40,679 nucleotides of DNA from an uncultured Caldilineaceae bacterium (GCA_964551895.1 CAZKEX010000001.1:5020-45698), one strand, 5' to 3'. Shown: positions 16,467 to 39,782, counted from the first letter of the stretch. A program made the numbers and translations. The notes: generated from the sequence alone by a model not told the origin.

Positions 16467-16609
16467 TGACTCTGCTGCAAAAAGCCAATTTTCACCGCAA
16501 AGACGCCAAGGACGCAAAGATTTCAAGGAAGATTGAGAAGAGAAATCTTGTTTTTCTTTGTGTTCTCTGCGCCTTTGCGGTGAATTCTTAGTTTTTGCAG
16601 CGGAGTCAC
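16467..16609. mobile_element. 143-bp imperfect-palindromic MITE-like element, copy A
   Basis: tgactctgctgcaaaaagcc...tagtttttgcagcggagtcac. It equals the reverse complement of 39641-39782 with only 2 mismatches. Terminal inverted repeats are gactctgctgcaaaaa / tttttgcagcggagtc. It is flanked by TTGATTGG arrays. Confidence 0.85.
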
Positions 16610-24813: not shown

Positions 24814-25010
24814 TAGGTGCGGTTTTTAACCGCACAAATGAGTTGGGTGCGCTCAAAATGAGTTGGCGGAGTCGGCATCCCTTCGACGGGCTCAGGACAC
24901 CGCCTCAGATGCCGAGCCGTTCGCATTTGAGAATGCTCACTCCTCGGCGTAACTCATCTTGAACACACCCAAATGAGTCAAGCGGATCGTGCGGTTGAAA
25001 ACCGCACCTA
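24814..25010. mobile_element. ~197-bp MITE-like element with 22-bp terminal inverted repeats, inserted between hypF and hypC
   Basis: TIRs are taggtgcggtttttaaccgcac (24814-24835) and gtgcggttgaaaaccgcaccta (24989-25010), matching at 21/22 positions. Each TIR is itself a small hairpin. The right TIR contains the hypF stop codon (25008-25010). Confidence 0.7.
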
Positions 25011-27434
25011 CCCAAGCCTTGCCGCGGCCACGGCCACCTGCCCCAGGCTGATCCCCCCATCGTTGGGCGGAACCTGGCGGTGGAGCAGCGCCTCAAAACC
25101 GGCCCGGCGCAAGGCCTGGGCGGTCTGCTCGGTGAGCCGTCGATTTTGGAAGCAGCCGCCGCTGAGGGCGATGCGGGGGTCGCCCACGGCTTGGGCCACG
25201 GCCACGGCCCCGGCCACCAAGCCATTGTGGAAACGTCCCGCCATGATACCGGGTTCCACGCCCCGGCGCAAGTCGGAGAGGATGGCGGCGATGGTGGGGC
25301 GCCAGTCGAGGAGGAGGGGATTGGGGATTGGGGATTGGGGATTGGGGATTGGGGGATTGGGGATTGGGGGATTGGAAGATTGGGAGATTGAGAAGGGATA
25401 GGCGCCGGTTTCCGATGGATCGGCGGCGTATTCTAGATCCATGGCGGCTTGGCCTTCGAAGGTGACCTGTTGGCGCAGGCCGATGAGGGCGGCGATGGCG
25501 TCGAAGAGACGACCGGCGCTGGTGGTGAGGGGGGCGTTGATCCCCTTGCGCAACATCTGGCCCAGGACGCGCCGCTCGGTGGCGGTCATGGCCTGGAGGG
25601 GGGGCAGGTCCATCTGATTCAACGCCTCTTCGCCCATGATCTCCCAGAGCAGGGCCAGGGCCACTCGCTTGGGCTGGCGCACGGCCGCATCCCCACCGGG
25701 CAGGCGGAAGGGGCGCAGATGGCCCACCCGCTCCACCCCCGCCGCATCCCCCAGCAGAAACTCCCCGCCCCAGATCGTGCCGTCCGGCCCGTAGCCCGTG
25801 CCGTCCCAAATGATCCCCAAGGCCGAACCGTCCACCCCGTTGTCCGCCAAACAGGCGGCCAGGTGGGCGTGGTGGTGTTGGACAGGGACCAATGGCGAAT
25901 GGCGAATGGCAAATGGTGTAGCGACTGATTGGTTAATCGGTTGATTGGTTGATCGACAATCTCCCAATCTCCCAATCTCTCCCTCGCCATTCGCCATTCG
26001 CCATTCGCCATTCGCCATTCGCGTGGACAGATAGTCCGGGTGCAGGTCGTGGGCGATGGCGGTGGGGGTGGCTGCGTAGAGGCGGAGGAAGTCGGCGATG
26101 ACGCGGTGGAAGGCGGCCAGGGACTCGGCGCTTTCCAGGTCGCCGATGTGTTGGCTGAGGAAGACGTTGCGGCCCACGCTGAGGGCGACGGTGTTTTTGA
26201 GGTGGGCGCCCACGGCCAGGATGGTGGGGGCGGGCCGGGGCAGAACCACGGGCAGGGGGGCGTAGCCCCGCGCCCGGCGCAGGAACTGGGACTGGCCGTC
26301 CACGATCCACAGCACGCTGTCGTCCACGTGCCGGGCGATGGGGCGGTTGTGGGTCAGGAAGGCGTCGGCGATGTGGCCCAGACGGTCCGCGGCCTCGTCG
26401 TTGTCGATGCAGATAGGTTCGTCGCTGAGGTTGCCGCTGGTGGCGACGAGGGGACGGTCAACCGACCGACACAATAGATGGTGGAGCGGGGTGGACGCCA
26501 CCATGATCCCGACGTTGGGATTTCCTGGGGCCACGGCACGGGCCAAGACACGGCTTTTTTCGTCCTTTTCCAAAAGAAGAATGGGGGCTTCTGCGGATAG
26601 CAGAAGCGCTTCGGCCTGTTGGGAGATGATGGCAAAGTGACGGGCCTGGGCCACGTCCCGGACCATGACGGCCAGGGGTTTGTGGGGACGGGGCTTGCGG
26701 TCCCGCAGACGTTGGACAGCGAGGGCGTTGGTGGCATCGGCCATGAGGTGGAAGCCGCCGAGACCTTTGACGGCGACGATTTGGCCAGCCTTCAACGCAT
26801 CGACTGCCCCCTGCAGTGCCTCGCCATTCGCCATCCGCCATTCGCCATTCGCCCCAAATCTGAGCGCTGGCCCGCACACCGGGCAGGCGTTGGGCTGGGC
26901 GTGGAAGCGGCGGTTGAGCGGGTCGGTGTATTCGGCGTGGCAGGCGGGGCAGAGGGGGAAGCCGGCCATGGTGGTGTTGGGCCGGTCATAGGGCAGGGCT
27001 TGGACGATGGTGAAGCGGGGGCCGCAGTCGGTGCAGTTGGTGAAGGCGTAGGCGTGGCGGCGGTCCGCGGGGTCCAACACCTCGGCCAGGCAGGCCGGGC
27101 AGGTGGCCAGGTCGGGCAGGACGAGGACGGTCTTGGGGCCGACGTGGTCGCTGTGGCGGATCTGGAAATCGGCGAAATCGGCGGGGTCGAGCTGTTCGGT
27201 GGTAAATTCCTGGATGCGGGCGTGGGGCGGGTGGTCCCGGCGGATGCGGGCCACGAAGCCGTCCAATTGGGCCGGGTCGCCCTGGGCCTCGATGAAGACG
27301 CCCCGGCTGTCGTTGATCACCCAGCCGGTGAGACCCAGATCCCCGGCCAGTCGGTAGACAAAGGGGCGAAAGCCCACCCCCTGCACCGCCCCCCGAATCT
27401 CGATCCGCACCCGCTGGGGACGCTCAACAGCCAT
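25008..27434 (-). CDS. hypF: Carbamoyltransferase HypF (acylphosphatase + 2 Zn-finger + YrdC + Kae1-like domains) carrying three in-frame repeat-encoded segments
   Basis: 808 aa with GGAGGG upstream of ATG 27434. Domain motifs: acylphosphatase GAVQGVGFRPFVYRLA; CPACLAEV...CTDCGPRFT and CPACHAEY...CPVCGP; VAVKGLGGFHLMADA; VQHHHAHLAAC. The repeat-derived peptides are ANGEWRMANGE, MANGEWRMANGEGEIGRLGDCRSTNQPINQSVATPFAIRHSP and SNPPIPNPPIPNPQSPIPNP. Confidence 0.93.
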   Translation of the reverse strand: MAVERPQRVRIEIRGAVQGVGFRPFVYRLAGDLGLTGWVINDSRGVFIEAQGDPAQLDGFVARIRRDHPPHARIQEFTTEQLDPADFADFQIRHSDHVGPKTVLVLPDLATCPACLAEVLDPADRRHAYAFTNCTDCGPRFTIVQALPYDRPNTTMAGFPLCPACHAEYTDPLNRRFHAQPNACPVCGPALRFGANGEWRMANGEALQGAVDALKAGQIVAVKGLGGFHLMADATNALAVQRLRDRKPRPHKPLAVMVRDVAQARHFAIISQQAEALLLSAEAPILLLEKDEKSRVLARAVAPGNPNVGIMVASTPLHHLLCRSVDRPLVATSGNLSDEPICIDNDEAADRLGHIADAFLTHNRPIARHVDDSVLWIVDGQSQFLRRARGYAPLPVVLPRPAPTILAVGAHLKNTVALSVGRNVFLSQHIGDLESAESLAAFHRVIADFLRLYAATPTAIAHDLHPDYLSTRMANGEWRMANGEGEIGRLGDCRSTNQPINQSVATPFAIRHSPLVPVQHHHAHLAACLADNGVDGSALGIIWDGTGYGPDGTIWGGEFLLGDAAGVERVGHLRPFRLPGGDAAVRQPKRVALALLWEIMGEEALNQMDLPPLQAMTATERRVLGQMLRKGINAPLTTSAGRLFDAIAALIGLRQQVTFEGQAAMDLEYAADPSETGAYPFSISQSSNPPIPNPPIPNPQSPIPNPLLLDWRPTIAAILSDLRRGVEPGIMAGRFHNGLVAGAVAVAQAVGDPRIALSGGCFQNRRLTEQTAQALRRAGFEALLHRQVPPNDGGISLGQVAVAAARLG
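25317..25393. repeat. (GGGGATT)n/(GAGATTGG) array inside hypF coding sequence
   Basis: ggggattggggattggggattggggattgggggattggggattgggggattggaagattgggagattgag. On the minus strand it is translated in-frame as SISQSSNPPIPNPPIPNPQSPIPNP. Confidence 0.9.
25889..26023. repeat. Composite repeat inside hypF: inverted (GCCATTC)n arrays flanking TTGATTGG and CAATCTCC units
   Basis: Order is ccaatggcgaatggcgaatggcaaatgg, then gattggttaatcggttgattggttgatcg, then acaatctcccaatctcccaatctc, then cgccattcgccattcgccattcgccattcgccattcgcg. It is read in-frame between the conserved HypF blocks HPDYLST and VQHHHAH. Confidence 0.9.
26818..26853. repeat. (GCCATTC)x5 array inside hypF coding sequence
   Basis: gcctcgccattcgccatccgccattcgccattcgcc. 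It encodes ANGEWRMANGE in the linker between the second Zn finger and the YrdC-like domain. Confidence 0.9.
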
Positions 27435-27481
27435 GATCCCACCCTCCTCTGAGGGGAGCCCATGAGACCCAAAAGGGATTG

Positions 27482-28168
27482 TCAGCTCTTGGCATGTTTG
27501 GCGAGTCCTTCCAGCTTTTCTCGATCGGAAATCATGAACTCTGTACGTTTGATCCGCACTACGCCTTCATCCGAGAACCGATACATCAATCTGCACACCA
27601 TCTCGCTTGTTGAACCGATCCGAGCGGCCATTTCGTCCAGGCTCATGTCTCGTTTCATATAGTCGCCCTCGGCATCCTCGCCGTAGTGGCTAAGGATAAG
27701 ACTCGCCAGACGGCTGGCGACGGGCTGAAAGGCCAACCCCTCGAGCATGTCGCTGGCCAGTTTCATCCGTGTGACCATCAAACGAGCCAACTCCCACGAT
27801 ACACGCCCATACTCGAACAGGATCGGCGTCAGGCTCTCTTGGGACCAGAGATGAATTTCGCTCTTCCGGTTGGTGATCAGTGCAACCTGCATGGGCATCT
27901 GTGTCTGAAAGAAGCCCATACCCCAAAAAACCTCCCCAGGTTTCATTGTAAAAAGGATCAATCTGCGCCCCTCGCTCGATTCTTTTATGGCGGTGACATT
28001 GCCACTCTCCACAATGAATAGATAAGGCCAATCGTCCCCGTGATGGCTTATCCAGTGATCCTTTGGATACTTTCGGGAGATCGCCAACTCGGCCAGGTTG
28101 CTTCTATCGGCCTCACTCAGGTGTGAGAAAACTGGGTTGTTGAGCAGTAACTTAGACAGCGACATCAT
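27482..28168 (-). CDS. Crp/Fnr family transcriptional regulator (no N-terminal Cys cluster; Dnr/NnrR-like class possible)
   Basis: 228 aa with a cNMP-binding beta-barrel region and a C-terminal HTH, MSLDEMAARIGSTSEMVCRLMYRFSDEGVV, carrying an E--(S/C)R-type recognition helix. GC is ~50%. It ends 47 nt upstream of hypF. Confidence 0.88.
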   Translation of the reverse strand: MMSLSKLLLNNPVFSHLSEADRSNLAELAISRKYPKDHWISHHGDDWPYLFIVESGNVTAIKESSEGRRLILFTMKPGEVFWGMGFFQTQMPMQVALITNRKSEIHLWSQESLTPILFEYGRVSWELARLMVTRMKLASDMLEGLAFQPVASRLASLILSHYGEDAEGDYMKRDMSLDEMAARIGSTSEMVCRLMYRFSDEGVVRIKRTEFMISDREKLEGLAKHAKS

Positions 28169-28239
28169 GGTCCCCTTCTCAGAAACTGAAAACGTCTGGT
28201 TGTTGACTTGCCTAAAGGCAAGGCATTGCAGAGAAGATC

Positions 28240-28255
28240 GTGATAAACTTCACAA
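28240..28255. promoter_or_regulatory. Candidate Crp/Fnr-family operator in divergent promoter region
   Basis: cGTGAtaaactTCACa matches TGTGA-N6-TCACA at 9/10 positions. It lies 72 nt upstream of the crp-like start and 88 nt upstream of the lipoprotein ATG. A second palindrome, CTTGCC-TAAA-GGCAAG, is at 28208-28223. Confidence 0.3.
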
Positions 28256-28342
28256 TATCGCCAACAAGCCCTTTTGTTCAGTCTTGTTGGCGAGAAATCG
28301 GGGTTTCAAACCATCAATAGTTCTTCAGAAAGGACAGGCGAA

Positions 28343-29158
28343 ATGAGGAAACCGTATCTCGTTCTTGCGATATTGCTTACTGTTGCCATGTTATTCTCGG
28401 CATGTACCCCCATTGCCCCTGGGTTGCCACCGCCTACGGCAAAGGCAGCGTCCGCCGTTGCGGTGGCCCCTGTTGACACGGCTGCGCCCCCAGCAGTAGA
28501 TGGGTTTGTATGGGATCAGGCCTATATTGCTGAAGTCCCTCCGATCATGATGATTGAACCATACTTCGGGATTTTTGGACAATCGGACGTCCCTGTTCCC
28601 TATTATTACGCAGAGGCCGTCAAATTAGCGGGTCATTCTTGTGGCGCTGTAACGGGCGCGTGGACGATTTCCCGCAAAGCGCTTGAAGTACTCTACCCCG
28701 ACGGAGAGATTCCGGTACGCGGTCAGATCGCTGTAGAGGCCCCCGGGGCCGAGGATGAATGGTTTGTCGGTGTGTTTGGCGAGGTCATTACCTTTGTCAC
28801 AGGCGCTGCGCCGAAAACAGGCTTTATCGGCGCAGAGTTTGGGAAAGCCAATCAGCTCTTTGTACGCCAAAACAAGATGGTCTACACAGAAGAGCCAACC
28901 GGCCAGCTTCATCCCATGAGAGAGTGGGTCTTCACCCGTCTTGATACAGGGGCAAAGGTGGGCGTCAAGTTCAATCTTGCCGTGATCACACCGATTGCAA
29001 CGCCTGAACGCCAGGCAATGGGACAAAAGATGGCCATAGGCGCAGCGACACCCGAAGAGGCCGCTGATTTTATCCAATACTGGAACGACAGGGCGACATT
29101 TGTATTGGAAAACGCAGATACCATGGACGGTTTCTTCACTGTCACAGTTTACGAATGA
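28343..29158 (+). CDS. Lipoprotein of unknown function (weak FmdE/FwdE-like HxCxG...TG....G...GK pattern)
   Basis: ORF 28274..29158. I moved the start to ATG 28343 (MRKPYLVLAILLTVAMLFSAC, lipobox). AGHSCGAVTGAW ... VITFVTGAAPKTGFIGAEFGKANQLF loosely resembles the FmdE-family motif order. The similarity is by eye only. Confidence 0.7.
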   Translation: MRKPYLVLAILLTVAMLFSACTPIAPGLPPPTAKAASAVAVAPVDTAAPPAVDGFVWDQAYIAEVPPIMMIEPYFGIFGQSDVPVPYYYAEAVKLAGHSCGAVTGAWTISRKALEVLYPDGEIPVRGQIAVEAPGAEDEWFVGVFGEVITFVTGAAPKTGFIGAEFGKANQLFVRQNKMVYTEEPTGQLHPMREWVFTRLDTGAKVGVKFNLAVITPIATPERQAMGQKMAIGAATPEEAADFIQYWNDRATFVLENADTMDGFFTVTVYE

Positions 29159-29184
29159 GCATAGAATGAGTGTGTCATCGTTCA

Positions 29185-29230
29185 CCCCTCGGCCCCGTTC
29201 GACATGAACTCAGCCGAACGGGGCCGGGGG
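29185..29230 (+). terminator. GC-rich hairpin downstream of lipoprotein gene (terminator/attenuator candidate, no clear U-tract)
   Basis: cccctcggccccgttcg-N13-cgaacggggccggggg, with a 12-bp perfect core stem. Confidence 0.4.
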
Positions 29231-29311
29231 ATGAGCGATGACGAATCAAGGGAGGCAGCGTCCGTGTTGTGTTGATCCAGTCTCGATTTTCTACAACCTA
29301 AGGGGCGTAAA

Positions 29312-30187
29312 ATGAGAGAAACTCCACAAAAAAACCGTATGGGCATGGCCATCGTTGCCATCGCGGTCGGTCTACTCATGATCTCAGTTATTCCGTACAT
29401 GGTACAGACTGCCCTTGAAAGAGTGCTGATCCACTTACTTGAGCATGTAAAAACAAATCCTGCCTTTTCCAGCGGTATTAAACTCTTCGACTTCTTCTAC
29501 CCGATCTGGCGAGCGCTTATCTTTGTGGCCGGCATTGCCTTGATCGTCATCTCCCCAGGGATCAAAAGAGGAGAAGAGTGGACCTATCCTCTGGCAATGG
29601 TTCTTTTCGCCCTACCCTCGATCGGCGGCATGTTCATGTTTCTACCCTATATCAGTTTTGTGCCCGGGTTCCCCCTTCCGCTGATCATCTCTGCTATTGG
29701 GTTGACAGGTTACTGGAGTTTCATCTTCTTGCGTAAGGCAGAGAAGATGCAAAAATGGACACGTTTCGGCGCATTGACCTTCATCGGCATGTTGGCCACA
29801 CATGCTTTCACCATTGGCGTCGGCGCCCAGCGCCAGATGTGGACCCGCCCTGGACACCCCCTGTACCAAGATTTCTCATGGTGGCTGTTCAATTGGGTTG
29901 GAGAGGTCAACTGGGTGGCGGTGATCCTGCTCGTCGCTTCGATTCCATTACTGGCGGTCGGCAGGCGCTCAGGCTGGTGGTTGGCAGTTATCGGCGCTGT
30001 CTCCATCCTGGCAATAGACGCCCCAACACAGTTCGTCCGCACAAGTACATTTGATTACCTTTACGGCTCGCTTCTTGCGATCGGCGTGTTGGTCTTCCTT
30101 TTGACCCCCTATTTCAAGAAACACCTGCTAAACGAAGCGGAAGCTGAGAGTCAATCTACAACCCATTCACCACTAGCAAAACCTTAA
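29312..30187 (+). CDS. Polytopic membrane protein (about 8 TM), unknown function
   Basis: 291 aa with ~8 hydrophobic helices by eye. The Trp-rich helix WWLFNWVGEVNWVAVILL is followed by GRRSGWWLAVIGAVSILA, and the next gene has the same arrangement. Confidence 0.75.
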   Translation: MRETPQKNRMGMAIVAIAVGLLMISVIPYMVQTALERVLIHLLEHVKTNPAFSSGIKLFDFFYPIWRALIFVAGIALIVISPGIKRGEEWTYPLAMVLFALPSIGGMFMFLPYISFVPGFPLPLIISAIGLTGYWSFIFLRKAEKMQKWTRFGALTFIGMLATHAFTIGVGAQRQMWTRPGHPLYQDFSWWLFNWVGEVNWVAVILLVASIPLLAVGRRSGWWLAVIGAVSILAIDAPTQFVRTSTFDYLYGSLLAIGVLVFLLTPYFKKHLLNEAEAESQSTTHSPLAKP

Positions 30188-30197
30188 GGAGCGTATC

Positions 30198-30983
30198 GTG
30201 AAAAACAACACTAAACTTGGAGCCGCTTTAGCCATCGTCGGTATCGTGGCCGGGCTACTAACATTCTATCTACTTGCCCTAACGTACAATCCGGTCATAG
30301 ACAGCCATGTCGCCGTTGGGCGGCCAGATGAGGCCAATACAGTGCGATTTGTATTTGCGTTCCTCGGTTGGCTGGGGGTAGCCGCCGGCGCACTTTGCGT
30401 ATCCGTGCTGTATGGCTTCTTAAAAAAGCAGCCGTGGGCGTGGTTTTGGGGAGTGGTGGCTGGCACTATTCTCCTGTTGTCCGGGTTTTTCCCGATGATT
30501 CCCGCTGCCGATGGCGGGGTGACGCCTATCACGGGCATCGTCTTCTTCTTGGCGGCCATCCTCTGGTTTGGGATGCTTTTCGTTGGTGGCGTCAACAAAA
30601 AGATCATTGCGCTTCTGTTCGTGACCGGATTGGCCTATGTGTTGACCTTTATCAACGGCGTGGCCCCCATCTCCAGATACCAGACCACAGAGGGTTTCTG
30701 GAACGGCTACTTTGTCATATCACAGCAGCTGAACTGGTGGAGCGCGGCAGCCTGGGCGGTCTTCAGCTTTGGTGTCCTTAAACAGAAATCCTGGGCGGTG
30801 CCCCTGGGTATCTTCGCCGGATCGTTGTCCATGATCGCCGGATTCCCAATGGCCATCAACAACATGCAGATCATGAACCGATTCTCCATGTTTTTGCCAG
30901 GCCCCATAATGAGCGCAATCATGCTCATTATTATCCTGCTGCCCAATACGCAGAAGCTTCTTGCAACCTGGCAAAACGAATAG
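30198..30983 (+). CDS. Polytopic membrane protein (about 8 TM), apparent paralog of 29312..30187
   Basis: GTG start at 30198 with AAGGAG at 30186-30191, 10 nt after the preceding stop. LNWWSAAAWAVFSFGVLKQKSWAVPLGIFAGSLSMIA parallels the upstream protein. Confidence 0.75.
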   Translation: MKNNTKLGAALAIVGIVAGLLTFYLLALTYNPVIDSHVAVGRPDEANTVRFVFAFLGWLGVAAGALCVSVLYGFLKKQPWAWFWGVVAGTILLLSGFFPMIPAADGGVTPITGIVFFLAAILWFGMLFVGGVNKKIIALLFVTGLAYVLTFINGVAPISRYQTTEGFWNGYFVISQQLNWWSAAAWAVFSFGVLKQKSWAVPLGIFAGSLSMIAGFPMAINNMQIMNRFSMFLPGPIMSAIMLIIILLPNTQKLLATWQNE

Positions 30984-31003
30984 CGTCTCTTTTCAACAAA
31001 CTG

Positions 31004-31094
31004 GAGAGAAACTGGGTTTTTGAACAATAGCTGTGCCATTCCAGAGATCGACAAAGACCCAGTTTCTCTCACCTTCCTGAGATACTGAGAAGGT
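31004..31094 (+). promoter_or_regulatory. Two consecutive hairpins in the leader of the 12-TM gene
   Basis: gagagaaactgggt (31004-31017) pairs with acccagtttctctc (31057-31070), a 14-bp perfect stem. It is followed directly by accttc (31071-31076) pairing with gaaggt (31089-31094). Confidence 0.4.
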
Positions 31095-31126
31095 ATACGA
31101 AACACTCAAGCATCGGAGTCGCGCTT

Positions 31127-32668
31127 ATGCAAGCTCTAACAACTCGTTTCAACTATCTCTTCCGCTCCACCAGGGGCTTGGCGTTGGTTGCCATCGCTGT
31201 GGTTGCTCTGATAACAGCTGTTTGGGGAACGCTATCCGGCCCGATGGTCGAGTGGGGTATACGCGATATCACAGTCAAGGTGTTGGGCATGGATCTGGTG
31301 CAGGCCGACCGTGAAGGCCGCATCATCATGCTCTATCACACCATCTCCATGACGGTTATTGCCATTGAAGTCTATTTCATGACCGAAATCCTGCCCATGA
31401 AACGCTATGAGCAGGTTTTCATCAACGCCACCATCACCGTGGGCTATCTCACTGCGGTCATCTTTGGCCTGTTCTTTGGCTATTTTGGCCACAACTTCGC
31501 CTTCCACGGTCTCTTCCTGGTTGGTCAGTCGTTGGTGTTTTTCGCTGGCCTACTGTTGGCCGCCGCCCTTTGGCCCTGGCGTAAAGAGTACCGTCTAGCC
31601 CCGGATTCGCCCTATGCCCACACCAAGAAAGGCACGGATCTAGAGCGTGCGGCCTTTTTCGTTATGGTCGTCATGACACTCATTTCCGCCACCTGGGGCG
31701 CTGTGGCTGGCTCCTTCTGGGCCAATGGACATGAGACCTTCTTGGCCGAAGATCTGATTCGCCTGCCAAACAAGGCGGCGCTTCAGAAGGCCATCATCGG
31801 CCACCTGCACATCATGCTGACCCTGGTCGCCGTCGCCATCACCTTGATTGTCGGTAGATGGATGGATTTTCAGGGCAAGCTTCATAAAGTCGCCATGCCC
31901 ATGATGATTCTCGGCACCATCGTCACCACCTTTGGGGCCTTGTCCATCGTCTGGCTTCCCTGGGGCCACACCACCATCTACGGCGGCTCGACCCTGATCC
32001 TGCTAGCCGCTCTATTCTACGTTATCTTCTCGTGGAACAAGCTGATCCAGGATCGCATCGCCGAGCAGGGCATCGAAAAGGCGACCTTCTTCCAGAAGAT
32101 CGCCGCCCTGCTGCATGACCCACTCAAGTTTGGCACTGGCTGGCAGATGGTCTTCATGAACTTCACGGTTAGTGGGATCGGCATCTTCATGGCCGTCAAG
32201 CTGACAGAGATCTTCCGTGTCTGGCCGCACCGGGAAGAGCGCATCATCTTGACCGGGCACTGGCATATTCTGGCAGGGCTCGTCGCCACGATTATCCTTC
32301 TCTACTACGGGGACCTCTCTGGTCTTAAAGGCAAGACTCGCAAATGGTACGGTTGGCTGATCATCATCGGCTCCAACATCGCCTTTGCCTCCGCCACAAT
32401 CTTCTCGATGAAGCGGCTCTTCGTCACCGAATACGAACAGCAGCCTGTGGTCAACACCCTCATGCTGCTGATGGACGGGGGGCTGGCCCTGCTTCTGATC
32501 ATACTTGCCATTTTCCTGGGATGGCGACTGATCGATCTATTCAGGAAAACCGGCGTCTGGAGCAAAGAATTTGCTGCGGAAAGGAAGTCTAACGCAGAAA
32601 TCGATCTGGCAGAACAGAAGCGCAAAATGGCAGAACTCCAGGCAACACTGGATGAGGTGTCAAAATGA
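31127..32668 (+). CDS. 12-TM His-rich membrane protein; candidate highly divergent heme-copper-oxidase/NOR subunit-I-like protein
   Basis: 513 aa with 12 hydrophobic helices by eye. His71 is in TM2 (LYHTIS). GHLH (H226/H228) is in TM6. GH281 follows TM7. GHWHILAGL (H378/H380) is in TM10. The C-terminal tail is charged and coiled. The stop overlaps the next gene's ATG (ATGA). Confidence 0.8.
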   Translation: MQALTTRFNYLFRSTRGLALVAIAVVALITAVWGTLSGPMVEWGIRDITVKVLGMDLVQADREGRIIMLYHTISMTVIAIEVYFMTEILPMKRYEQVFINATITVGYLTAVIFGLFFGYFGHNFAFHGLFLVGQSLVFFAGLLLAAALWPWRKEYRLAPDSPYAHTKKGTDLERAAFFVMVVMTLISATWGAVAGSFWANGHETFLAEDLIRLPNKAALQKAIIGHLHIMLTLVAVAITLIVGRWMDFQGKLHKVAMPMMILGTIVTTFGALSIVWLPWGHTTIYGGSTLILLAALFYVIFSWNKLIQDRIAEQGIEKATFFQKIAALLHDPLKFGTGWQMVFMNFTVSGIGIFMAVKLTEIFRVWPHREERIILTGHWHILAGLVATIILLYYGDLSGLKGKTRKWYGWLIIIGSNIAFASATIFSMKRLFVTEYEQQPVVNTLMLLMDGGLALLLIILAIFLGWRLIDLFRKTGVWSKEFAAERKSNAEIDLAEQKRKMAELQATLDEVSK

Positions 32669-33618
32669 AACGCACAATCTTCAGCCTACTCTTGATCAGC
32701 TTACTTGCAGCCGCCTGCGCGCCATCATCCGCCGTAGGCGCAATCACCCCGCCAATCATTGACACCGGTGTAGACCCGGACGCGTGGGCCACAATCCCTG
32801 CCGGGGAATTCCCCTACGGTCAGATGGACCACATGACCGCGGTGGATGAATATCAGATCATGATCACCGATGTCACTGTCGAGCAATACGTCAACTTTCT
32901 GAACGAAGCCCTGGCATTGGGTGATGTCAGCGTTGGCGAGTTTGAGGTCGAAGCCGGAGAGGTAATCCGGCGCGAGAACGGGGTCGGTGGCTACTATGGC
33001 GGCGAGCCTTTCCACGGCTATAAGCACGAAGAAGAGATCAAAGCCGGCGACCACCTCTACGTGTCCCTGGCAGAGGACAATGGCGTCCGTCTAACCTTCG
33101 ACGGGCAGACTTTCACCGGCATGGCAGCGTACGCCAACCACCCCATGAACATGGTGACCTGGTTTGGCGCCAACGCCTATTGCGAATACTATGACACACG
33201 CCTGCCAACCGAGGTCGAATGGGAGAAAGCCGCCCGGGGGACCGAAATCGTAAACGGACGTGGTCTTCCCTTCCCCTGGGGCGAAAAGATTGCGGCCAAC
33301 AACGCCAATTACTACTCTTCCTTCGATCTCTTCGAGAAGATATATGGCAAGTTGGGCAACACCACACCGGTCGGCTTCTACAATGGCCAAACCTACGATG
33401 GCTATGAAACCCTTGATTCGGCCAGTCCCTACGGCCTCTACGACATGGCCGGCAACGTGTGGCAATGGATGGGTGATGACTACCCTGACCAACACTATCG
33501 CCACATGCGGGGCGGCAGTTTCTACTCCTACGAAGTTGACCTGCGGGTTTGGAAATTCAACAGCGCTGGTCCACAGCACTACGCCCCGTCCATAGGGTTC
33601 AGGTGCGCAAAAGACTAG
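32665..33618 (+). CDS. Formylglycine-generating-enzyme (SUMF1/FGE-sulfatase, NirV-like) domain lipoprotein
   Basis: Lipobox MKRTIFSLLLISLLAAAC. FGE-domain blocks are VTWFGANAYCEYYDTRLPTEVEWEKAARG, YGLYDMAGNVWQWMGD, RGGSF and GFRCAKD. Confidence 0.88.
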   Translation: MKRTIFSLLLISLLAAACAPSSAVGAITPPIIDTGVDPDAWATIPAGEFPYGQMDHMTAVDEYQIMITDVTVEQYVNFLNEALALGDVSVGEFEVEAGEVIRRENGVGGYYGGEPFHGYKHEEEIKAGDHLYVSLAEDNGVRLTFDGQTFTGMAAYANHPMNMVTWFGANAYCEYYDTRLPTEVEWEKAARGTEIVNGRGLPFPWGEKIAANNANYYSSFDLFEKIYGKLGNTTPVGFYNGQTYDGYETLDSASPYGLYDMAGNVWQWMGDDYPDQHYRHMRGGSFYSYEVDLRVWKFNSAGPQHYAPSIGFRCAKD

Positions 33619-33810
33619 CTTGTGTCAGCAACAGGCCCCCCGGCCCCCAATTCTGGGGGAGGTCGTGGACTGTTCCCCCCAAGGTTGGGGGGCTAGGGGG
33701 GCGGGGGAGCAGGCGGTCGCCTTGCGTTAGCAACAGGCCCCCCGGCCCCCAACTTTGGGGGAGGTCGTGGACTATTCCCCCCAAAGTTGGGGGCTAGGGG
33801 GGCAGGGGAG
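33619..33810. repeat. Tandem repeat, 2 x ~102 bp (~90% identical), each with two C-run/G-run hairpins
   Basis: Unit 1 is 33619-33720 and unit 2 is 33721-33810 (cttg[t/c]gt[c/t]agcaacaggccccccggcccccaa..tgggggaggtcgtggact.ttccccccaa.gttggggg.ctaggggggc.ggggag). It is GC-rich within the low-GC island. Confidence 0.9.
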
Positions 33811-33899
33811 TGAACGATGACGATGGAGAGGCAGGAACCTAATCTCTGCCTCTCGTATTGACCAGAGATCGATTTCCAACATCAGATTGGGAGCCTATT

Positions 33900-34763
33900 A
33901 TGCCAGATTTCAAGACCAAGCTCCGCCTCTATTGGCCGCTTATCAAGAGCTTTCAGACTGCACTGCTTATCACCACTGGGTTGGCCGGGTTTATGAGTAC
34001 ACGCTGCCCAATCCTGAATTGGCAAACCGTGCTGGCTGTAACCGGCAGCCTATTCCTTGCCATTAGCGGCAGCACAGTCTTGAACATGTGGTACGATCGG
34101 GATATCGACGCCAAAATGGAGCGGACAAAAAATCGTCCCTTGCCAGCGGGCAAGATCTCTCCCCGGGAGGCGCTCATCCTCGGCCTGGTCTTGTCCACCC
34201 TGGGCGTCGGTTGGGCTGTCGCCCTCGACCCCCTCTACGGCCTCATCGTCTTCGCCGGTCTGTTCTTCGATGTGGTCATCTACACGATCTGGCTCAAACG
34301 ACGCACGGCCTGGGGCATCCTTTGGGGGGGAATCGCTGGCGGTATGCCCATCTTGGCCGGCCGGGCCTTGGGCACCGGGGAGATCGAATGGATAGGCATT
34401 CTTCTGGCGTTGGCTGTCCTCTTCTGGATCCCCACCCATATCCTCACTTTCAGCATGCGGTTCCACGACGATTACCAGCGCGCTGGCATCCCCACCTTCC
34501 CCTCCGTCTATGGCAATCGCGTCACCCAGATCACCATCGCCATCTCCAGCATGATTGCAGCCATCATGATGATCATCGCCGCATACGGTGTTGGCCTCAC
34601 CTTTGGCTATCTGCGCCTGATGGTCGTCCTCTCCTTTGGCCTGCTGCTTCTGGCCATCGGCAGCGCCACAAAGCCTTCCAAACAGACTAACTTTGGCCTG
34701 TTCAAATACGCGTCATTCTACATGCTCAGCACCATGATGCTATTGATGTTGGTTGCCGGATAA
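33900..34763 (+). CDS. ctaB: Protoheme IX farnesyltransferase (heme O synthase), UbiA family
   Basis: ORF 33858 (TTG)..34763. I prefer ATG 33900, which has GGGAG upstream. NMWYDRDIDAKMERTKNRPLPAGKIS and WIPTHILTFSMRFHDDYQRAGIPTFPSVYG match the two CyoE/CtaB signature regions. Confidence 0.88.
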   Translation: MPDFKTKLRLYWPLIKSFQTALLITTGLAGFMSTRCPILNWQTVLAVTGSLFLAISGSTVLNMWYDRDIDAKMERTKNRPLPAGKISPREALILGLVLSTLGVGWAVALDPLYGLIVFAGLFFDVVIYTIWLKRRTAWGILWGGIAGGMPILAGRALGTGEIEWIGILLALAVLFWIPTHILTFSMRFHDDYQRAGIPTFPSVYGNRVTQITIAISSMIAAIMMIIAAYGVGLTFGYLRLMVVLSFGLLLLAIGSATKPSKQTNFGLFKYASFYMLSTMMLLMLVAG

Positions 34764-34798
34764 TCAGGGTCACTGTCATCCAGCCAAAAGAGCAAACC

Positions 34799-35404
34799 AT
34801 GAAAAAAATGTCTGTGCTTGACCGAATACTCCTTCTGCTCACCGGGCTGCTTGCCGCCTATCAAATTGTTGTTGGCATTGATGAGACCGTGACCCTGTTC
34901 GTGGGGGCCTACATCATTGCCTTTGGCGTGCTGCTGATAGCTGGCCTATTGCTGATCATCATGGGGTTTGAGGTCTTGGATAGTCCACTGGTCGTCATCG
35001 TCTCCACCATCATCCCCCTCAGCCTCTCCCTGGGCCTGGTTGCCGAATATTTGCCCGCATCCACCACGCTCTATCTAGCTTTTGTTGTCGTCGGATTCCT
35101 GGCAGTGATGGTCACCCGCTACACCAACCCCGGCAAAGTTGCGACGATGGTTCTTGCCACAGTGCATGGCATCGCCGGCATGGTGATCTTTCTGCTTCCC
35201 ATCCTCTTTGTCCTGTGGGGCGAAATGGCTGGCGGATTCGCCTTGGTCGGTGTCGGCGGCGCGCTGATCGGCGTGGGAGGATTGCTGCTGGCATTTCTAA
35301 AGGCGGGAAAACCCATCTTGCCTCAAAAGACCATCCTAACCGTGCTGCCTGGCCTGTTGTTGCTGATGACAGCGGCTTTTGTGGCAGGATTTTCATTCGC
35401 GTAG
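34799..35404 (+). CDS. Polytopic membrane protein (about 6 TM), unknown function
   Basis: 201 aa, almost entirely hydrophobic helices. It starts 35 nt after the ctaB stop. Confidence 0.7.
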   Translation: MKKMSVLDRILLLLTGLLAAYQIVVGIDETVTLFVGAYIIAFGVLLIAGLLLIIMGFEVLDSPLVVIVSTIIPLSLSLGLVAEYLPASTTLYLAFVVVGFLAVMVTRYTNPGKVATMVLATVHGIAGMVIFLLPILFVLWGEMAGGFALVGVGGALIGVGGLLLAFLKAGKPILPQKTILTVLPGLLLLMTAAFVAGFSFA

Positions 35405-35448
35405 ATTGCAGATTCATTCACTTTCCTTTCGTTTCTCGATGAAACCAT

Positions 35449-35570
35449 GACGCTACTGCAAAGAGCAATTTCAACGCAAAGTGCGCAAAGAGGCACAAAG
35501 AGGCGCGGAGATGGCAGAGAAAAACCTGCCGTTCTTTGGGTTGAAAATTAGTTTTTGCAGTGGAGTCAAC
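35449..35570. mobile_element. Diverged member of the 143-bp palindromic element family, inside the low-GC island
   Basis: gacgctactgcaaagagcaatttcaacgcaaag ... gttgaaaattagtttttgcagtggagtcaac. The ends align with element A/B termini (gactctgctgcaaaaagccaattttcaccgcaaag ... ttagtttttgcagcggagtcac). Confidence 0.65.
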
Positions 35571-35597
35571 CACAAGATTCAGATAGGAGAAGATACC

Positions 35598-36284
35598 ATG
35601 TTTGGCAAATTGTTACGCATCGTTGGTCTTGTGTTGTTGGCGGTAACGGCCGTTATCACCCTGTTAAGTGGCATCGGCACAACCTGCGTCGCCCTAAATC
35701 CCACAAAATATAACATGGCAGCCATCACCCCCTACCAGTGGCTCTATATCCTCTACGTCATCGCTGGCATCATCATCGGCGTGATGGGCATCCTCGCCAC
35801 TGTGGCCCTGGCCAGAAGCAAACCCATGGCCTACCGCTCGGCGCTCATCGCTCTGACCCTGGGCCTCGTCACCGGGGGTCTGCACATGGCTACCTCCCGG
35901 GCGCTGCGGGGTAGCTCCATGCCGCTGGACTTTATCGTCTACGCAACCGTCGTCACCCTGCTCTATTTCCTGCTCCTCCGCATCCCCGGCGTCTGGAACC
36001 AGATCAACCTTGCCGACAAAGACGATAACACAACTGGGCTGGGCGCCGGCGTCGCCATGATCGTGGGCGGCATTGTTGTCCTCACCGTGCAGTTGTGGGC
36101 CGGGCCGACGCACGTGATCAACGGCATCAACTACGCGGACGTGTGGCACACACAGATGACGGTCGTCGGTGGGACGTTGACCGTGCTGGGGGCCAGCCTG
36201 CTCCTGGCCACCGTCATGAGCATTGCCCTGCCCTACCCCTTCCAGAGATTCAATGCCCAACCGGCCGAATCGTCAAATAATTAG
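35598..36284 (+). CDS. Polytopic membrane protein (about 6-7 TM), unknown function
   Basis: ORF 35481..36284. I moved the start to ATG 35598, which has AGGAGA at 35585-35590. It begins MFGKLLRIVGLVLLAVTAVITLL. The upstream part of the ORF is translated repeat. Confidence 0.7.
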   Translation: MFGKLLRIVGLVLLAVTAVITLLSGIGTTCVALNPTKYNMAAITPYQWLYILYVIAGIIIGVMGILATVALARSKPMAYRSALIALTLGLVTGGLHMATSRALRGSSMPLDFIVYATVVTLLYFLLLRIPGVWNQINLADKDDNTTGLGAGVAMIVGGIVVLTVQLWAGPTHVINGINYADVWHTQMTVVGGTLTVLGASLLLATVMSIALPYPFQRFNAQPAESSNN

Positions 36285-36291
36285 CCCCTCA

Positions 36292-36391
36292 CCGACCAGA
36301 TTCTTGCACAAAACACAAGAATCTGGTCGGCGCGAATAAGAAACGAAGGCGCAAAAAACACAGAATTCTGTGTTTTTTGCGCCTTCGTTTC
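36292..36391. terminator. Two strong hairpins between convergent genes (island end / hypB end)
   Basis: Hairpin 1 is ccgaccagattcttg...caagaatctggtcgg (36292-36330). Hairpin 2 is a perfect 52-bp palindrome, gaaacgaaggcgcaaaaaacacagaa|ttctgtgttttttgcgccttcgtttc (36340-36391). Confidence 0.75.
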
Positions 36392-36412
36392 CTAACGGCT
36401 AAATCGTTTTCC

Positions 36413-37057
36413 CTACGCCCCGCGTTTCAGCAGCCACTCCATCCACCCATCCATCCCCGCGCCGGTTTTGCACGAGAGAATGAAGAGGGGGACGCCAGGG
36501 TTGACCATCTCCAGGCCCCGGTGGAAGTAGTCCACGTCAAACTCGAAGATCTCGATCATGTCGGCCTTGTTGAGGACCACGACATGGGCGGCGGCGAACA
36601 TGCCCGGATATTTGTAGGGCTTGTCGCTGCCTTCGGGGACGCTGGCCACGACCACATTGCGGGCCGTGCCCAGGGCAAAGTCGGCGGGGCAGACCAGGTT
36701 GCCCACGTTTTCCACAAAGAGCAGGTCGATCTCGTCCAGGGGCAGGTCGGCCAGGGCGGACTGGATCATGGGCGCGTCCAGGTGGCAGCCGCCGCCGGTG
36801 TTGATCTGGACCACGGGCACGCCCCGGGCCGCGATCTTGTCGGCGTCGATGCTGGCGGCCAGGTCCCCTTCGATGACGCCGGGGCGCTGGTCCGGGGGCA
36901 GGCGGTCCAGAGTGGCCAGGATCAGGCTGGTCTTCCCCGCGCCGGGGGAGGCCATGAGGTTGAGGCCAAAGATGCCCGCCCCGGCCAAGATCTCCCGGTT
37001 ACGGTCCGCCACCGCATCGTTGGCGCTAAGAATTTGTTTGACAACGGATACTTTCAT
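36413..37057 (-). CDS. hypB: Hydrogenase nickel-incorporation GTPase HypB
   Basis: ORF 36413..37594. I moved the start to ATG 37057 (MKVSVVKQILSAND...) because the upstream part is the antisense shadow of the SDR gene and repeats. Motifs are the P-loop SPGAGKTS, GGGCHLDA, ENVGNLVCP and NKAD. Confidence 0.92.
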   Translation of the reverse strand: MKVSVVKQILSANDAVADRNREILAGAGIFGLNLMASPGAGKTSLILATLDRLPPDQRPGVIEGDLAASIDADKIAARGVPVVQINTGGGCHLDAPMIQSALADLPLDEIDLLFVENVGNLVCPADFALGTARNVVVASVPEGSDKPYKYPGMFAAAHVVVLNKADMIEIFEFDVDYFHRGLEMVNPGVPLFILSCKTGAGMDGWMEWLLKRGA

Positions 37058-37104
37058 AACTGCATTTTCCGATCCACGAATCTTCACGAATCCACACGAA
37101 TCTA

Positions 37105-37171
37105 AACCAACCAACCAACAAACCAACCAACAAACCAACAAACAAACCAACCAACCAATCAACCAACCAAC
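37105..37171. repeat. (CCAA)n/(CAAA)n array between SDR and hypB
   Basis: aaccaaccaaccaacaaaccaaccaacaaaccaacaaacaaaccaaccaaccaatcaaccaaccaa. Its right end encodes the SDR C-terminal codons Q-L-V-G and the stop codon. Confidence 0.9.
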
Positions 37172-39578: not shown

Positions 39579-39640
39579 GGTTGGGTTTGGTTGGGTTGGT
39601 TGGGTTGGTTGGTTGGTTGGTTTGTTGGTTTGTTTGTTGG

Positions 39641-39782
39641 TGACTCTGCTGCAAAAACTAAAAATTCACCGCAAAGGCGCAGAGAACACAAAGAAAAACA
39701 AGATTTCTCTTCTCAATCTTCCTTGAAATCTTTGCGTCCTTGGCGTCTTTGCGGTGAAAATTGGCTTTTTGCAGCAGAGTCA
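39641..39782. mobile_element. 143-bp imperfect-palindromic MITE-like element, copy B (inverted relative to copy A)
   Basis: Its reverse complement is identical to 16467-16609 except for 2 positions. It is flanked by the GGTT/TTGG arrays at 39579-39640 and 39783-39805. Confidence 0.85.

Follow-up and report, generated by a model that had tools for sequence, protein, structure and literature searches.

A low-GC island in an uncultured Caldilineaceae genome encodes a conserved membrane protein with the predicted fold of haem-copper oxidase subunit I

Introduction

Haem-copper oxidases (HCOs) and nitric oxide (NO) reductases underlie aerobic respiration and denitrification, and surveys of O2 and NO use depend on detecting them by sequence. 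Subunit I of the HCOs carries six canonical histidine ligands: one in transmembrane (TM) helix 2, one in TM6, a pair (HH) in TM7, and two in an HxH motif in TM10. A farnesylated haem typically marks a high-spin catalytic site, and the Escherichia coli cyoABCDE operon ends in its own haem O synthase gene. NnrS, from denitrifiers, is a membrane protein that contains haem and copper. Here we describe a nine-gene island at positions 27482-36284 of a 40,679-nucleotide stretch of DNA, the window, from an uncultured Caldilineaceae bacterium (GCA_964551895.1 CAZKEX010000001.1:5020-45698). Its central gene encodes a protein of 513 amino acids with 12 TM helices, which we call X513. On balance, the evidence leans towards the island encoding a membrane-bound haem (or haem-metal) oxidoreductase of an undescribed family, oxidase-like and probably reducing low levels of O2 and/or NO.

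The locus shares some features with each of the described systems and differs from them in others. Like subunit I of the HCOs (CcoN, CbaA, CyoB, NorB, qNOR), X513 has a predicted 12-TM fold with both termini inside, and histidines in TM2, TM6 and a TM10 HxH motif in the outer half of the membrane. Unlike these proteins it has no detectable sequence homology to the family, has one histidine in place of the TM7 HH pair and no tyrosine in the cross-link column, and contains two extra invariant histidines, H127 and H228. The bo3 operon cyoABCDE is matched in that the X513 cluster encodes its own haem O synthase, but neither a subunit II of the CuA or cytochrome c type nor a recognisable subunit III is encoded; X513 is instead partnered by a lipoprotein with the formylglycine-generating enzyme (FGE) fold and novel small membrane proteins. 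X513 has no HCO sequence signature, no tyrosine in the cross-link column and no subunit II, and its ligand set appears incomplete; we therefore do not file it in any described HCO family.

As in cyoABCDE and the Bacillus ctaA-ctaB-ctaCDEF genes, enzyme genes appear to be co-encoded with a farnesyl-haem synthase. The X513 cluster differs from both in lacking a haem A synthase and canonical subunits, and in occurring in Anaerolineae and Asgard lineages generally regarded as anaerobic. X513 also resembles NnrS in being polytopic, rich in histidine and linked to Crp/Fnr-type regulation, and NnrS-like genes lie near the cluster in six loci; however, X513 has no match to Pfam PF05940, and hhalign gave a probability below 1% against the neighbouring NnrS-like family.

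Predicted fold and invariant residues of X513

Searches with X513 gave no Pfam or NCBIfam match, and phmmer and profile searches of the PDB sequences were empty. Pfam and NCBIfam searches with 21 X513 homologues likewise gave nothing for the X513 part, and in 20 diverse homologues COX1 was absent even at an E-value of 1. When only close homologues were aligned, AlphaFold gave a first model of pLDDT 75, and the sole global match to it was subunit I of cytochrome ba3. An alignment of 137 sequences, sharing 25-89% identity and including a distant subfamily recovered by exhaustive search of 50%-identity representatives, yielded a model with a pLDDT of 92.6 and a pTM of 0.92. When this model was compared with the PDB using Foldseek, the global matches were to HCO subunit I alone, and comprised the cbb3, ba3, bo3 and aa3 oxidases and the NO reductases cNOR and qNOR. 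TM-scores were 0.45-0.58 (cbb3 3mk7_G, 0.53/0.58; ba3, 0.55-0.58; cNOR 3o0r_B, 0.49/0.54), and the matches were full-length and in register, with probabilities of 0.99-1.00 over 470-555 aligned columns. All other folds, including transporters (MFS, MATE, MurJ), G-protein-coupled receptors and the antiporter-like subunits of complex I, had TM-scores of 0.25 or less.

Residues that are invariant in the 137 sequences, down to 25% identity, include Y70, H71, Y119, H127, E208, H226, H228, H281, E371, H378, W379 and H380. The seven histidines hold from bacteria to Asgard archaea, and are placed by the model in TM2, at the start of TM4, in TM6, at the turn between TM7 and TM8, and in TM10, where they form an HxH motif. 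The topology read from the sequence by the positive-inside rule puts both termini in the cytoplasm and the invariant histidines in the outer half of the membrane. As modelled, X513 thus has the 12-helix subunit I fold of the haem-copper oxidases and NO reductases, with a similar histidine pattern and topology. The earlier note, made from the sequence alone, had seen no canonical oxidase subunit in the island and could not assign the system to any described complex. This holds at the level of sequence matches, but a presumed oxidase-like catalytic subunit, recognisable by fold, had been overlooked; the fold comparison that the note proposed, run on the 12-TM protein, gave the HCO subunit I fold only.

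Distribution and gene order of the X513 cluster

More than 3,000 relatives of X513 were found. None of the best 120 has a name, and each shares 71% identity or more with X513. A scan of one genome per species, with a closer X513 alignment as query, identified the protein in at least 311 species genomes, and gene order was analysed in the best 80 of these (82 loci) by searching the nine window proteins against the open reading frames of each locus. Nearly all of the best 80 belong to the Chloroflexota class Anaerolineae, across which X513 identity exceeds 70%; the remainder are a few Calditrichota and one Bacteroidota bin. The order [TM201-like]-X513-FGE-CtaB-TM201-TM267 was observed in nearly all loci. 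TM201 and TM267 are small membrane proteins of separate families: TM201 lies downstream of ctaB in most loci, many of which have another paralogue of it ahead of X513, and TM267 follows TM201 in about 37 loci. About half of the loci also have, upstream of the cluster, a divergent Crp gene and the genes for two further membrane proteins, TM291 and TM261, with or without a lipoprotein gene.

Three Asgard loci (Hodarchaeales, Thorarchaeota and Heimdallarchaeota) show the arrangement [TM201- or TM267-like]-X513-UbiA. The proteins encoded upstream of X513 are TM201 homologues in the Hodarchaeales and Heimdallarchaeota loci (E-values 6e-33 and 1e-24), and a TM267 homologue in the Thorarchaeota locus and in a further, Odinarchaeota-labelled, locus. 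No published description of the X513 family or of its gene cluster was found in the full-text literature searched, including that on Asgard oxygen metabolism.

Genes found beside the cluster in other genomes encode a NapH/NosH-like Fer4_5 polyferredoxin (28 of the 82 loci), a DUF4405 cytochrome b, a mono-haem cytochrome c, an NnrS-like protein and a MarR regulator; the regulator types associated with the cluster are Crp/Fnr, MarR and HxlR. In the Thorarchaeota- and Odinarchaeota-labelled loci (L095, 1-5970; L097, 7765-13509) the X513 homologue lies beside an NrfA-like multihaem cytochrome (Cytochrom_C552), and the same block encodes a GlcNAc-2-epimerase/GH76-like protein of 736-743 amino acids, a cytochrome c assembly protein of 736-741 amino acids and a divergent HxlR regulator. 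Extra genes, among them those for the polyferredoxin, the DUF4405 cytochrome b and the MarR regulator, separate the Crp/TM291/TM261 and X513 modules in L029 (3391-6920), L018 (4776-6919) and 26 further loci; the window has none. An inserted protein of 404-415 amino acids gave sub-threshold NnrS matches in both L029 and L018, and its copy in L009 also gave a faint COX1 match. In one Chloroflexota genome (L003, 16705-18840), genes for a P1B ATPase of the copper type and for an HMA chaperone follow the cluster at a distance of about 3 kb, past transposase and integrase fragments. This single case hints at a copper supply.

The haem O synthase and the FGE-fold lipoprotein

Just three of the nine island proteins, the Crp-type regulator, an FGE-sulfatase protein and a haem O synthase, are recognised by Pfam or NCBIfam. 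The last two had been named in the earlier note, and both assignments stand: the island CtaB scores 236.2 bits against the TIGR01473 equivalog, for which the cut-off is 210.3, and the lipoprotein matches the FGE-sulfatase family with a highly significant E-value (Table 1). The ctaB gene lies downstream of the X513 and FGE genes in 67 of 82 bacterial loci, and a UbiA-family gene adjoins X513 in the three Asgard loci, where the encoded proteins score 206-219 bits on TIGR01473, at the threshold. Co-occurrence across genomes, which the earlier note had suggested as a check, was thus found: ctaB and FGE genes are almost universal companions of X513 in the 80 species genomes, and the link to ctaB reaches the Asgard archaea. 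All Heimdallarchaeia lineages have been reported to encode haem O synthesis (10.1101/2024.07.04.601786), which fits the presence of an unrecognised client for haem O.

The X513 and FGE genes overlap by ATGA or GTGA in 74 of 80 loci. The lipoprotein shares its domain and extracytoplasmic location with pFGE/SUMF2 and with the FGE-sulfatase (C-type lectin-like) fold family that includes the NirV-type lipoproteins. Its best relative in the PDB is pFGE/SUMF2, an inactive paralogue. The only conserved cysteines are C18, in the lipobox, C173 and C314, so that the Cu(I)-binding catalytic pair is missing. We therefore rejected a role as a catalytic FGE or as a NirV-type copper protein, and with it the analogy to NirV and the copper-dependent FGE that the earlier note had drawn. 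The island protein differs further from pFGE/SUMF2 and the NirV types in being lipid-anchored and coupled to a 12-TM protein, with which it is fused in one case, and there is no nirK gene nearby.

The fusion, P0122, is a metagenomic representative of 785 amino acids, in which an X513 homologue is cut before its C-terminal helix and followed by one extra TM helix and an FGE-sulfatase domain. X513 ends in the cytoplasm, and the added helix therefore carries the FGE domain across to the outer face, where the histidine cluster also lies. P0122 may be a frameshift artefact at the ATGA overlap and, being a single case, it is weak evidence.

A candidate oxidoreductase and its alternatives

From the predicted fold, the invariant residues and the conserved neighbours we infer which cofactors the X513 enzyme binds, how its subunits meet, what donates electrons to it and what it reduces. 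X513 would most likely be the catalytic subunit, with a low-spin haem ligated by H71 and H380 and a high-spin haem O on H378. A non-haem metal could be bound beside the high-spin haem, with H226 or H228, H281 and perhaps H127 as its ligands; these histidines, like those of the haems, are in the outer half of the membrane. The haem O would be made by CtaB, the product of the adjacent gene. The FGE-fold lipoprotein, made in fixed proportion to X513 through translational coupling, may cap the outer face in place of a classical subunit II, and TM201 and TM267 could be small integral subunits or could act in assembly. A linked module, under a putative TTGC-N6-GCAA operator, would consist of Crp, the new lipoprotein, TM291 and TM261. 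The core encodes neither a c-type cytochrome nor a cupredoxin, which makes quinol, or the NapH-like or cytochrome b partners found in other genomes, the probable source of electrons. The reaction would probably be the reduction of O2 and/or NO at low concentration, with a scavenging or detoxifying role: a dedicated farnesyl-haem points to O2-reductase-like chemistry, and scavenging of NO or trace O2 is suggested by the missing tyrosine, by neighbours related to N-oxides and by regulators of the stress type.

Several results weigh against this assignment. The Foldseek E-values of the HCO matches are weak (best 1.8e-3), and there is no detectable homology between X513 and the HCOs at the level of sequence, Pfam PF00115 (COX1) being absent even at an E-value of 1. 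Alignment of X513 with bovine COX1 alone by hhalign was uninformative. Against a profile of nine A- and B-type subunit I sequences, taken from plasmid-borne genes, the best alignment had a probability of 48% (E-value 1.8e-4) and was shifted in register by four TM helices, whereas the in-register alignment had a probability of 4.6%; with the deeper X513 alignment these values fell to 12% and 0.9% respectively. A shift of four helices is expected from the threefold internal pseudo-symmetry of the fold. In the in-register alignment, which ranked second and was full-length, H226 falls on the CuB histidine of TM6, H281 on a CuB histidine of TM7, and H378-x-H380 on the HxH motif of TM10, and H71 falls 7 residues, or two helical turns, from the TM2 histidine. 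X513 thus has a single histidine, H281, at the site of the TM7 pair, and in the column of the cross-link tyrosine it has M230; its invariant tyrosines, Y70 and Y119, lie elsewhere. Because the hhalign matches are weak and depend on the register, we claim a shared fold and ligand pattern, and not proven homology.

Further points on the same side come from the other genes. None of the nine island proteins contains a CxxCH motif, a cupredoxin, a cytochrome c or a COX1 Pfam match, so that no CuA or cytochrome c subunit is encoded; the earlier note had rightly listed cupredoxins and CxxCH proteins as absent. The Odinarchaeota-labelled locus encodes a TM267-like protein and X513, with no ctaB within 6 kb. 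The conserved Crp box described below lies mainly upstream of the TM291/TM261 module and not of X513, and therefore the two modules may have separable functions.

Two alternatives, which we regard as equally improbable, deserve attention. In the first, X513 handles haem O, either as a haem-modifying enzyme with a role like that of CtaA next to CtaB, or as a chaperone or insertase delivering haem O to other oxidases. The tight adjacency of X513 and ctaB is like that of ctaA-ctaB pairs, some lineages that have the cluster are described as anaerobic, and the conserved histidines at positions 71, 127, 226 and 281, in TM2, TM4, TM6 and TM8, resemble the four histidines of CtaA. However, X513 has no match to Pfam COX15-CtaA, and CtaA structures are outside the top 50 Foldseek matches, a list filled by HCO subunit I. 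Oxidase operons such as cyoABCDE, too, end in their own haem O synthase gene, and the extra conserved partners (the FGE-fold lipoprotein, TM201 and TM267) suit an enzyme complex better than haem O handling.

The second alternative is that X513 is a multi-haem cytochrome b-type conduit or sensor without a binuclear site, passing electrons through or along the membrane to the lipoproteins of the outer face, or acting as has been proposed for NnrS in NO stress. The seven invariant histidines could ligate up to three bis-His haems, and the single histidine at the TM7 position and the lack of an active-site tyrosine would be accounted for; moreover, genes for NnrS-like proteins and DUF4405 cytochrome b lie near the cluster in some genomes. 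Against this, farnesylated haems belong typically to high-spin catalytic sites, there is no profile similarity between X513 and the neighbouring NnrS-like family, and the fold matches are to catalytic subunits.

A transporter or other non-redox membrane protein, with a UbiA-family neighbour that prenylates some other substrate and a linkage reflecting lipid or envelope biology, is very improbable: some automated names for X513 homologues ('MFS family permease', 'YfcA') and the frequency of 12 TM helices among transporters speak for it, but no transporter family matches X513, the UbiA-family protein is above the haem O synthase equivalog threshold, seven invariant intramembrane histidines are atypical of carriers, and we rejected this reading on the Foldseek search.

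An oxidoreductase built around X513 therefore remains our preferred reading. The earlier note had proposed that the island, self-contained and horizontally acquired, encodes a haem(-metal) membrane enzyme related to redox or NO/O2 reactions, together with a regulator and the means of making its cofactor, and the GC content, predicted fold, gene linkage and ctaB gene all favour it. Assignment of the membrane proteins to transporter families and loss of the co-occurrence with ctaB and FGE genes, which the note had named as contrary outcomes, were not observed: the membrane proteins belong to no transporter family, and the gene set is conserved.

More tentatively, X513 and its partners might constitute an unrecognised sister family of the haem-copper oxidoreductases, with its own metal ligation and an FGE-fold outer subunit, present in Anaerolineae, Calditrichota and Asgard archaea (among them Thor-, Odin- and Hodarchaeales-type lineages), and the real client of haem O synthases in supposed anaerobes. 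The family escapes sequence-based surveys of O2 and NO use though it is conserved. If active, the enzyme would change metabolic reconstructions of Chloroflexota that are abundant in sediment and sludge, and would account for haem O synthesis that is otherwise orphaned in anaerobes. If X513 reduces O2 or NO, relatives of the eukaryotic ancestor would contain an unseen O2- or NO-consuming enzyme, a point of interest for the debated oxygen metabolism of the archaeal ancestors of eukaryotes. A sister family with this activity would also provide a new deep branch for reconstructing the origin of aerobic respiration. The family would offer a natural experiment in which an oxidase scaffold has been rebuilt with other ligands and an unrelated outer subunit.

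The linked regulator, lipoprotein and membrane protein module

The earlier note had described the divergent regulator as a Cys-less member of the Crp/Fnr family. The family assignment is borne out by its cNMP-binding and helix-turn-helix domains, but the protein is not Cys-less, having a single conserved cysteine, C192, in the helix-turn-helix domain. There is no FNR-type N-terminal cluster of cysteines for a [4Fe-4S] centre, and none of the NCBIfam equivalog models passes its cut-off for this protein. About half of the 82 loci have an orthologue of the regulator upstream of the cluster.

No canonical FNR or CRP box was present in the intergenic regions of the island. The likeness to NO-responsive regulators of the Dnr/NnrR class, for which the box would be TTGAT-N4-ATCAA, had been drawn in the earlier note and is not supported, as the conserved box is TTGC-N6-GCAA. 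De novo counting in 1.1 Mb of related loci identified 26 copies of TTTGC-N6-GCAAA, compared with about 1.1 expected, and nearly all immediately preceded a TM291, TM261 or lipoprotein gene or fell in the region divergent from Crp. The window contains three copies of the shorter form TTGC-N6-GCAA: the candidate operator TTGCCTAAAGGCAA in the divergent Crp/lipoprotein promoter region, a second box upstream of X513 (Table 1) and a third at 34140. All three are inside the island, and their number is not significant (3 against 0.98 expected).

TM291 and TM261 are paralogues (hhalign probability 90%). Profile comparison of these two proteins, and of TM201 and TM267, with HCO subunit I showed no similarity. 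The lipoprotein of this module consists of a new domain of about 215 amino acids with an invariant GHSCGA motif, to which no Pfam, NCBIfam or PDB match was found; orthologues are 65-78% identical. The domain is single in the window and is tandemly duplicated, giving proteins of about 500 amino acids, in seven of nine orthologues (those of L030, L034, L038, L046, L052, L073 and L029).

Composition and borders of the island

The island (8.8 kb) has a mean GC content of 0.546, compared with 0.631 for the rest of the window. Values fall from 0.65-0.69 at about position 27450, range from 0.49 to 0.60 per 500-nucleotide window within the island, and return to higher levels at about 36300. The earlier note had placed the fall exactly between the hypF start and a pair of hairpins, with values of 45-52%; the borders are confirmed, but the values were too low. 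At third codon positions, GC content is 0.54-0.76 in the nine island genes and 0.81-0.82 in hypF and the flanking SDR gene. In 43 other genomes with enough flanking sequence at the locus, the cluster differs from its flanks by 0.008 +/- 0.03 in GC content; in the window the difference is -0.085.

A hypB-like gene lies on one side of the island and hypF-hypC-hypD-hypE on the other, all on the minus strand, and the island therefore interrupts a hyp operon. The block has been acquired horizontally by this Caldilineaceae genome, which is metagenome-assembled, and has inserted into its hyp operon; its composition is foreign. Neither a tRNA nor any other Rfam family was detected in the island region, in agreement with the earlier note, which had seen no tRNA marking the borders. 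The compact arrangement of the nine genes was also as reported, with a 10-nucleotide gap (30187/30198), a 35-nucleotide gap (34763/34799) and the ATGA overlap (32665-32668) all present.

Table 1. Genes, repeats and candidate operator sites of the island and its flanks
Feature	Coordinates	Strand	Remarks
hypF (left flank)	25008..27434	-	Pfam HypF domains; hypC, hypD, hypE continue, down to 22146 (HupF_HypC, HypD, AIRS)
Crp/Fnr-family regulator, 228 aa	27482..28168	- (divergent)	Pfam cNMP_binding (PF00027) and HTH_Crp_2 (PF13545)
Candidate operator TTGCCTAAAGGCAA (TTGC-N6-GCAA)	28208..28221		Divergent Crp/lipoprotein promoter region
Lipoprotein, new domain	28340..29158	+	Open reading frame opens with TTG at 28274; likely start ATG 28340
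TM291, polytopic membrane protein	29312..30187	+	Sub-threshold DUF7144 match only; in 33/82 loci
TM261, polytopic membrane protein	30198..30983	+	TM291 paralogue; in 42/82 loci
Second TTGC-N6-GCAA box	30961..30974		153 nt upstream of X513 start
X513, 513 aa, 12 TM	31127..32668	+	HCO subunit I fold in AlphaFold model; presumed catalytic subunit
FGE/SUMF-fold lipoprotein	32665..33618	+	PF03781, E 1.6e-36; lipobox Cys18
GC-rich tandem repeat, 102 bp x 1.9 copies	33619..33810		Inverted repeat of type CCCCCAAAGTTGGGGG in each copy
Haem O synthase (CtaB/CyoE)	33858..34763	+	TIGR01473; likely start ATG 33900
TM201, small polytopic membrane protein	34799..35404	+	Core X513 partner; invariant residues include R9, Y21, Q22, H123
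TM267, polytopic membrane protein	35481..36284	+	GTG 35481 opens the reading frame; probable true start ATG 35598, giving ~228 aa
Two hairpins, right island border	36292..36394		36292-36330, 15-nt perfect stem; 36337-36394, 58-nt palindrome, central 52 nt perfect
hypB-like GTPase (right flank)	36413..37102	-	Pfam cobW/HypB/UreG

Repeats within and around the island

The two hairpins at the right border and the GC-rich tandem repeat, both mentioned in the earlier note, were located at the expected positions (Table 1). A supposed copy of a palindromic host element at 35449-35570 could not be substantiated: the sequence is not palindromic, and its single match elsewhere in the window is 21 nucleotides long (16588-16608). 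Two inverted repeats were observed within the island, at 29174-29242 (28-nucleotide arms, 89%), after the lipoprotein gene, and at 31004-31070 (19-nucleotide arms, 95%), before the X513 gene. These may be terminators, attenuators or elements resembling repetitive extragenic palindromes that divide the island into transcription units.

The hypF reading frame contains tandem repeats of heptanucleotide units at 25316-25390, 25891-26022 and 26821-26853. The units are GGGGATT (10 copies), TCGCCAT (5.6 and 4.7 copies) and AATGGCG (3.7 copies), and they encode peptide repeats of the PIPNP and MANGEWR types. Units of seven bases are unusual in a conserved maturation gene. Tetranucleotide microsatellites are found around the SDR gene and further downstream, with about 17 copies of AACC at 37105-37171 and about 13 copies of TTGG at 39587-39641.

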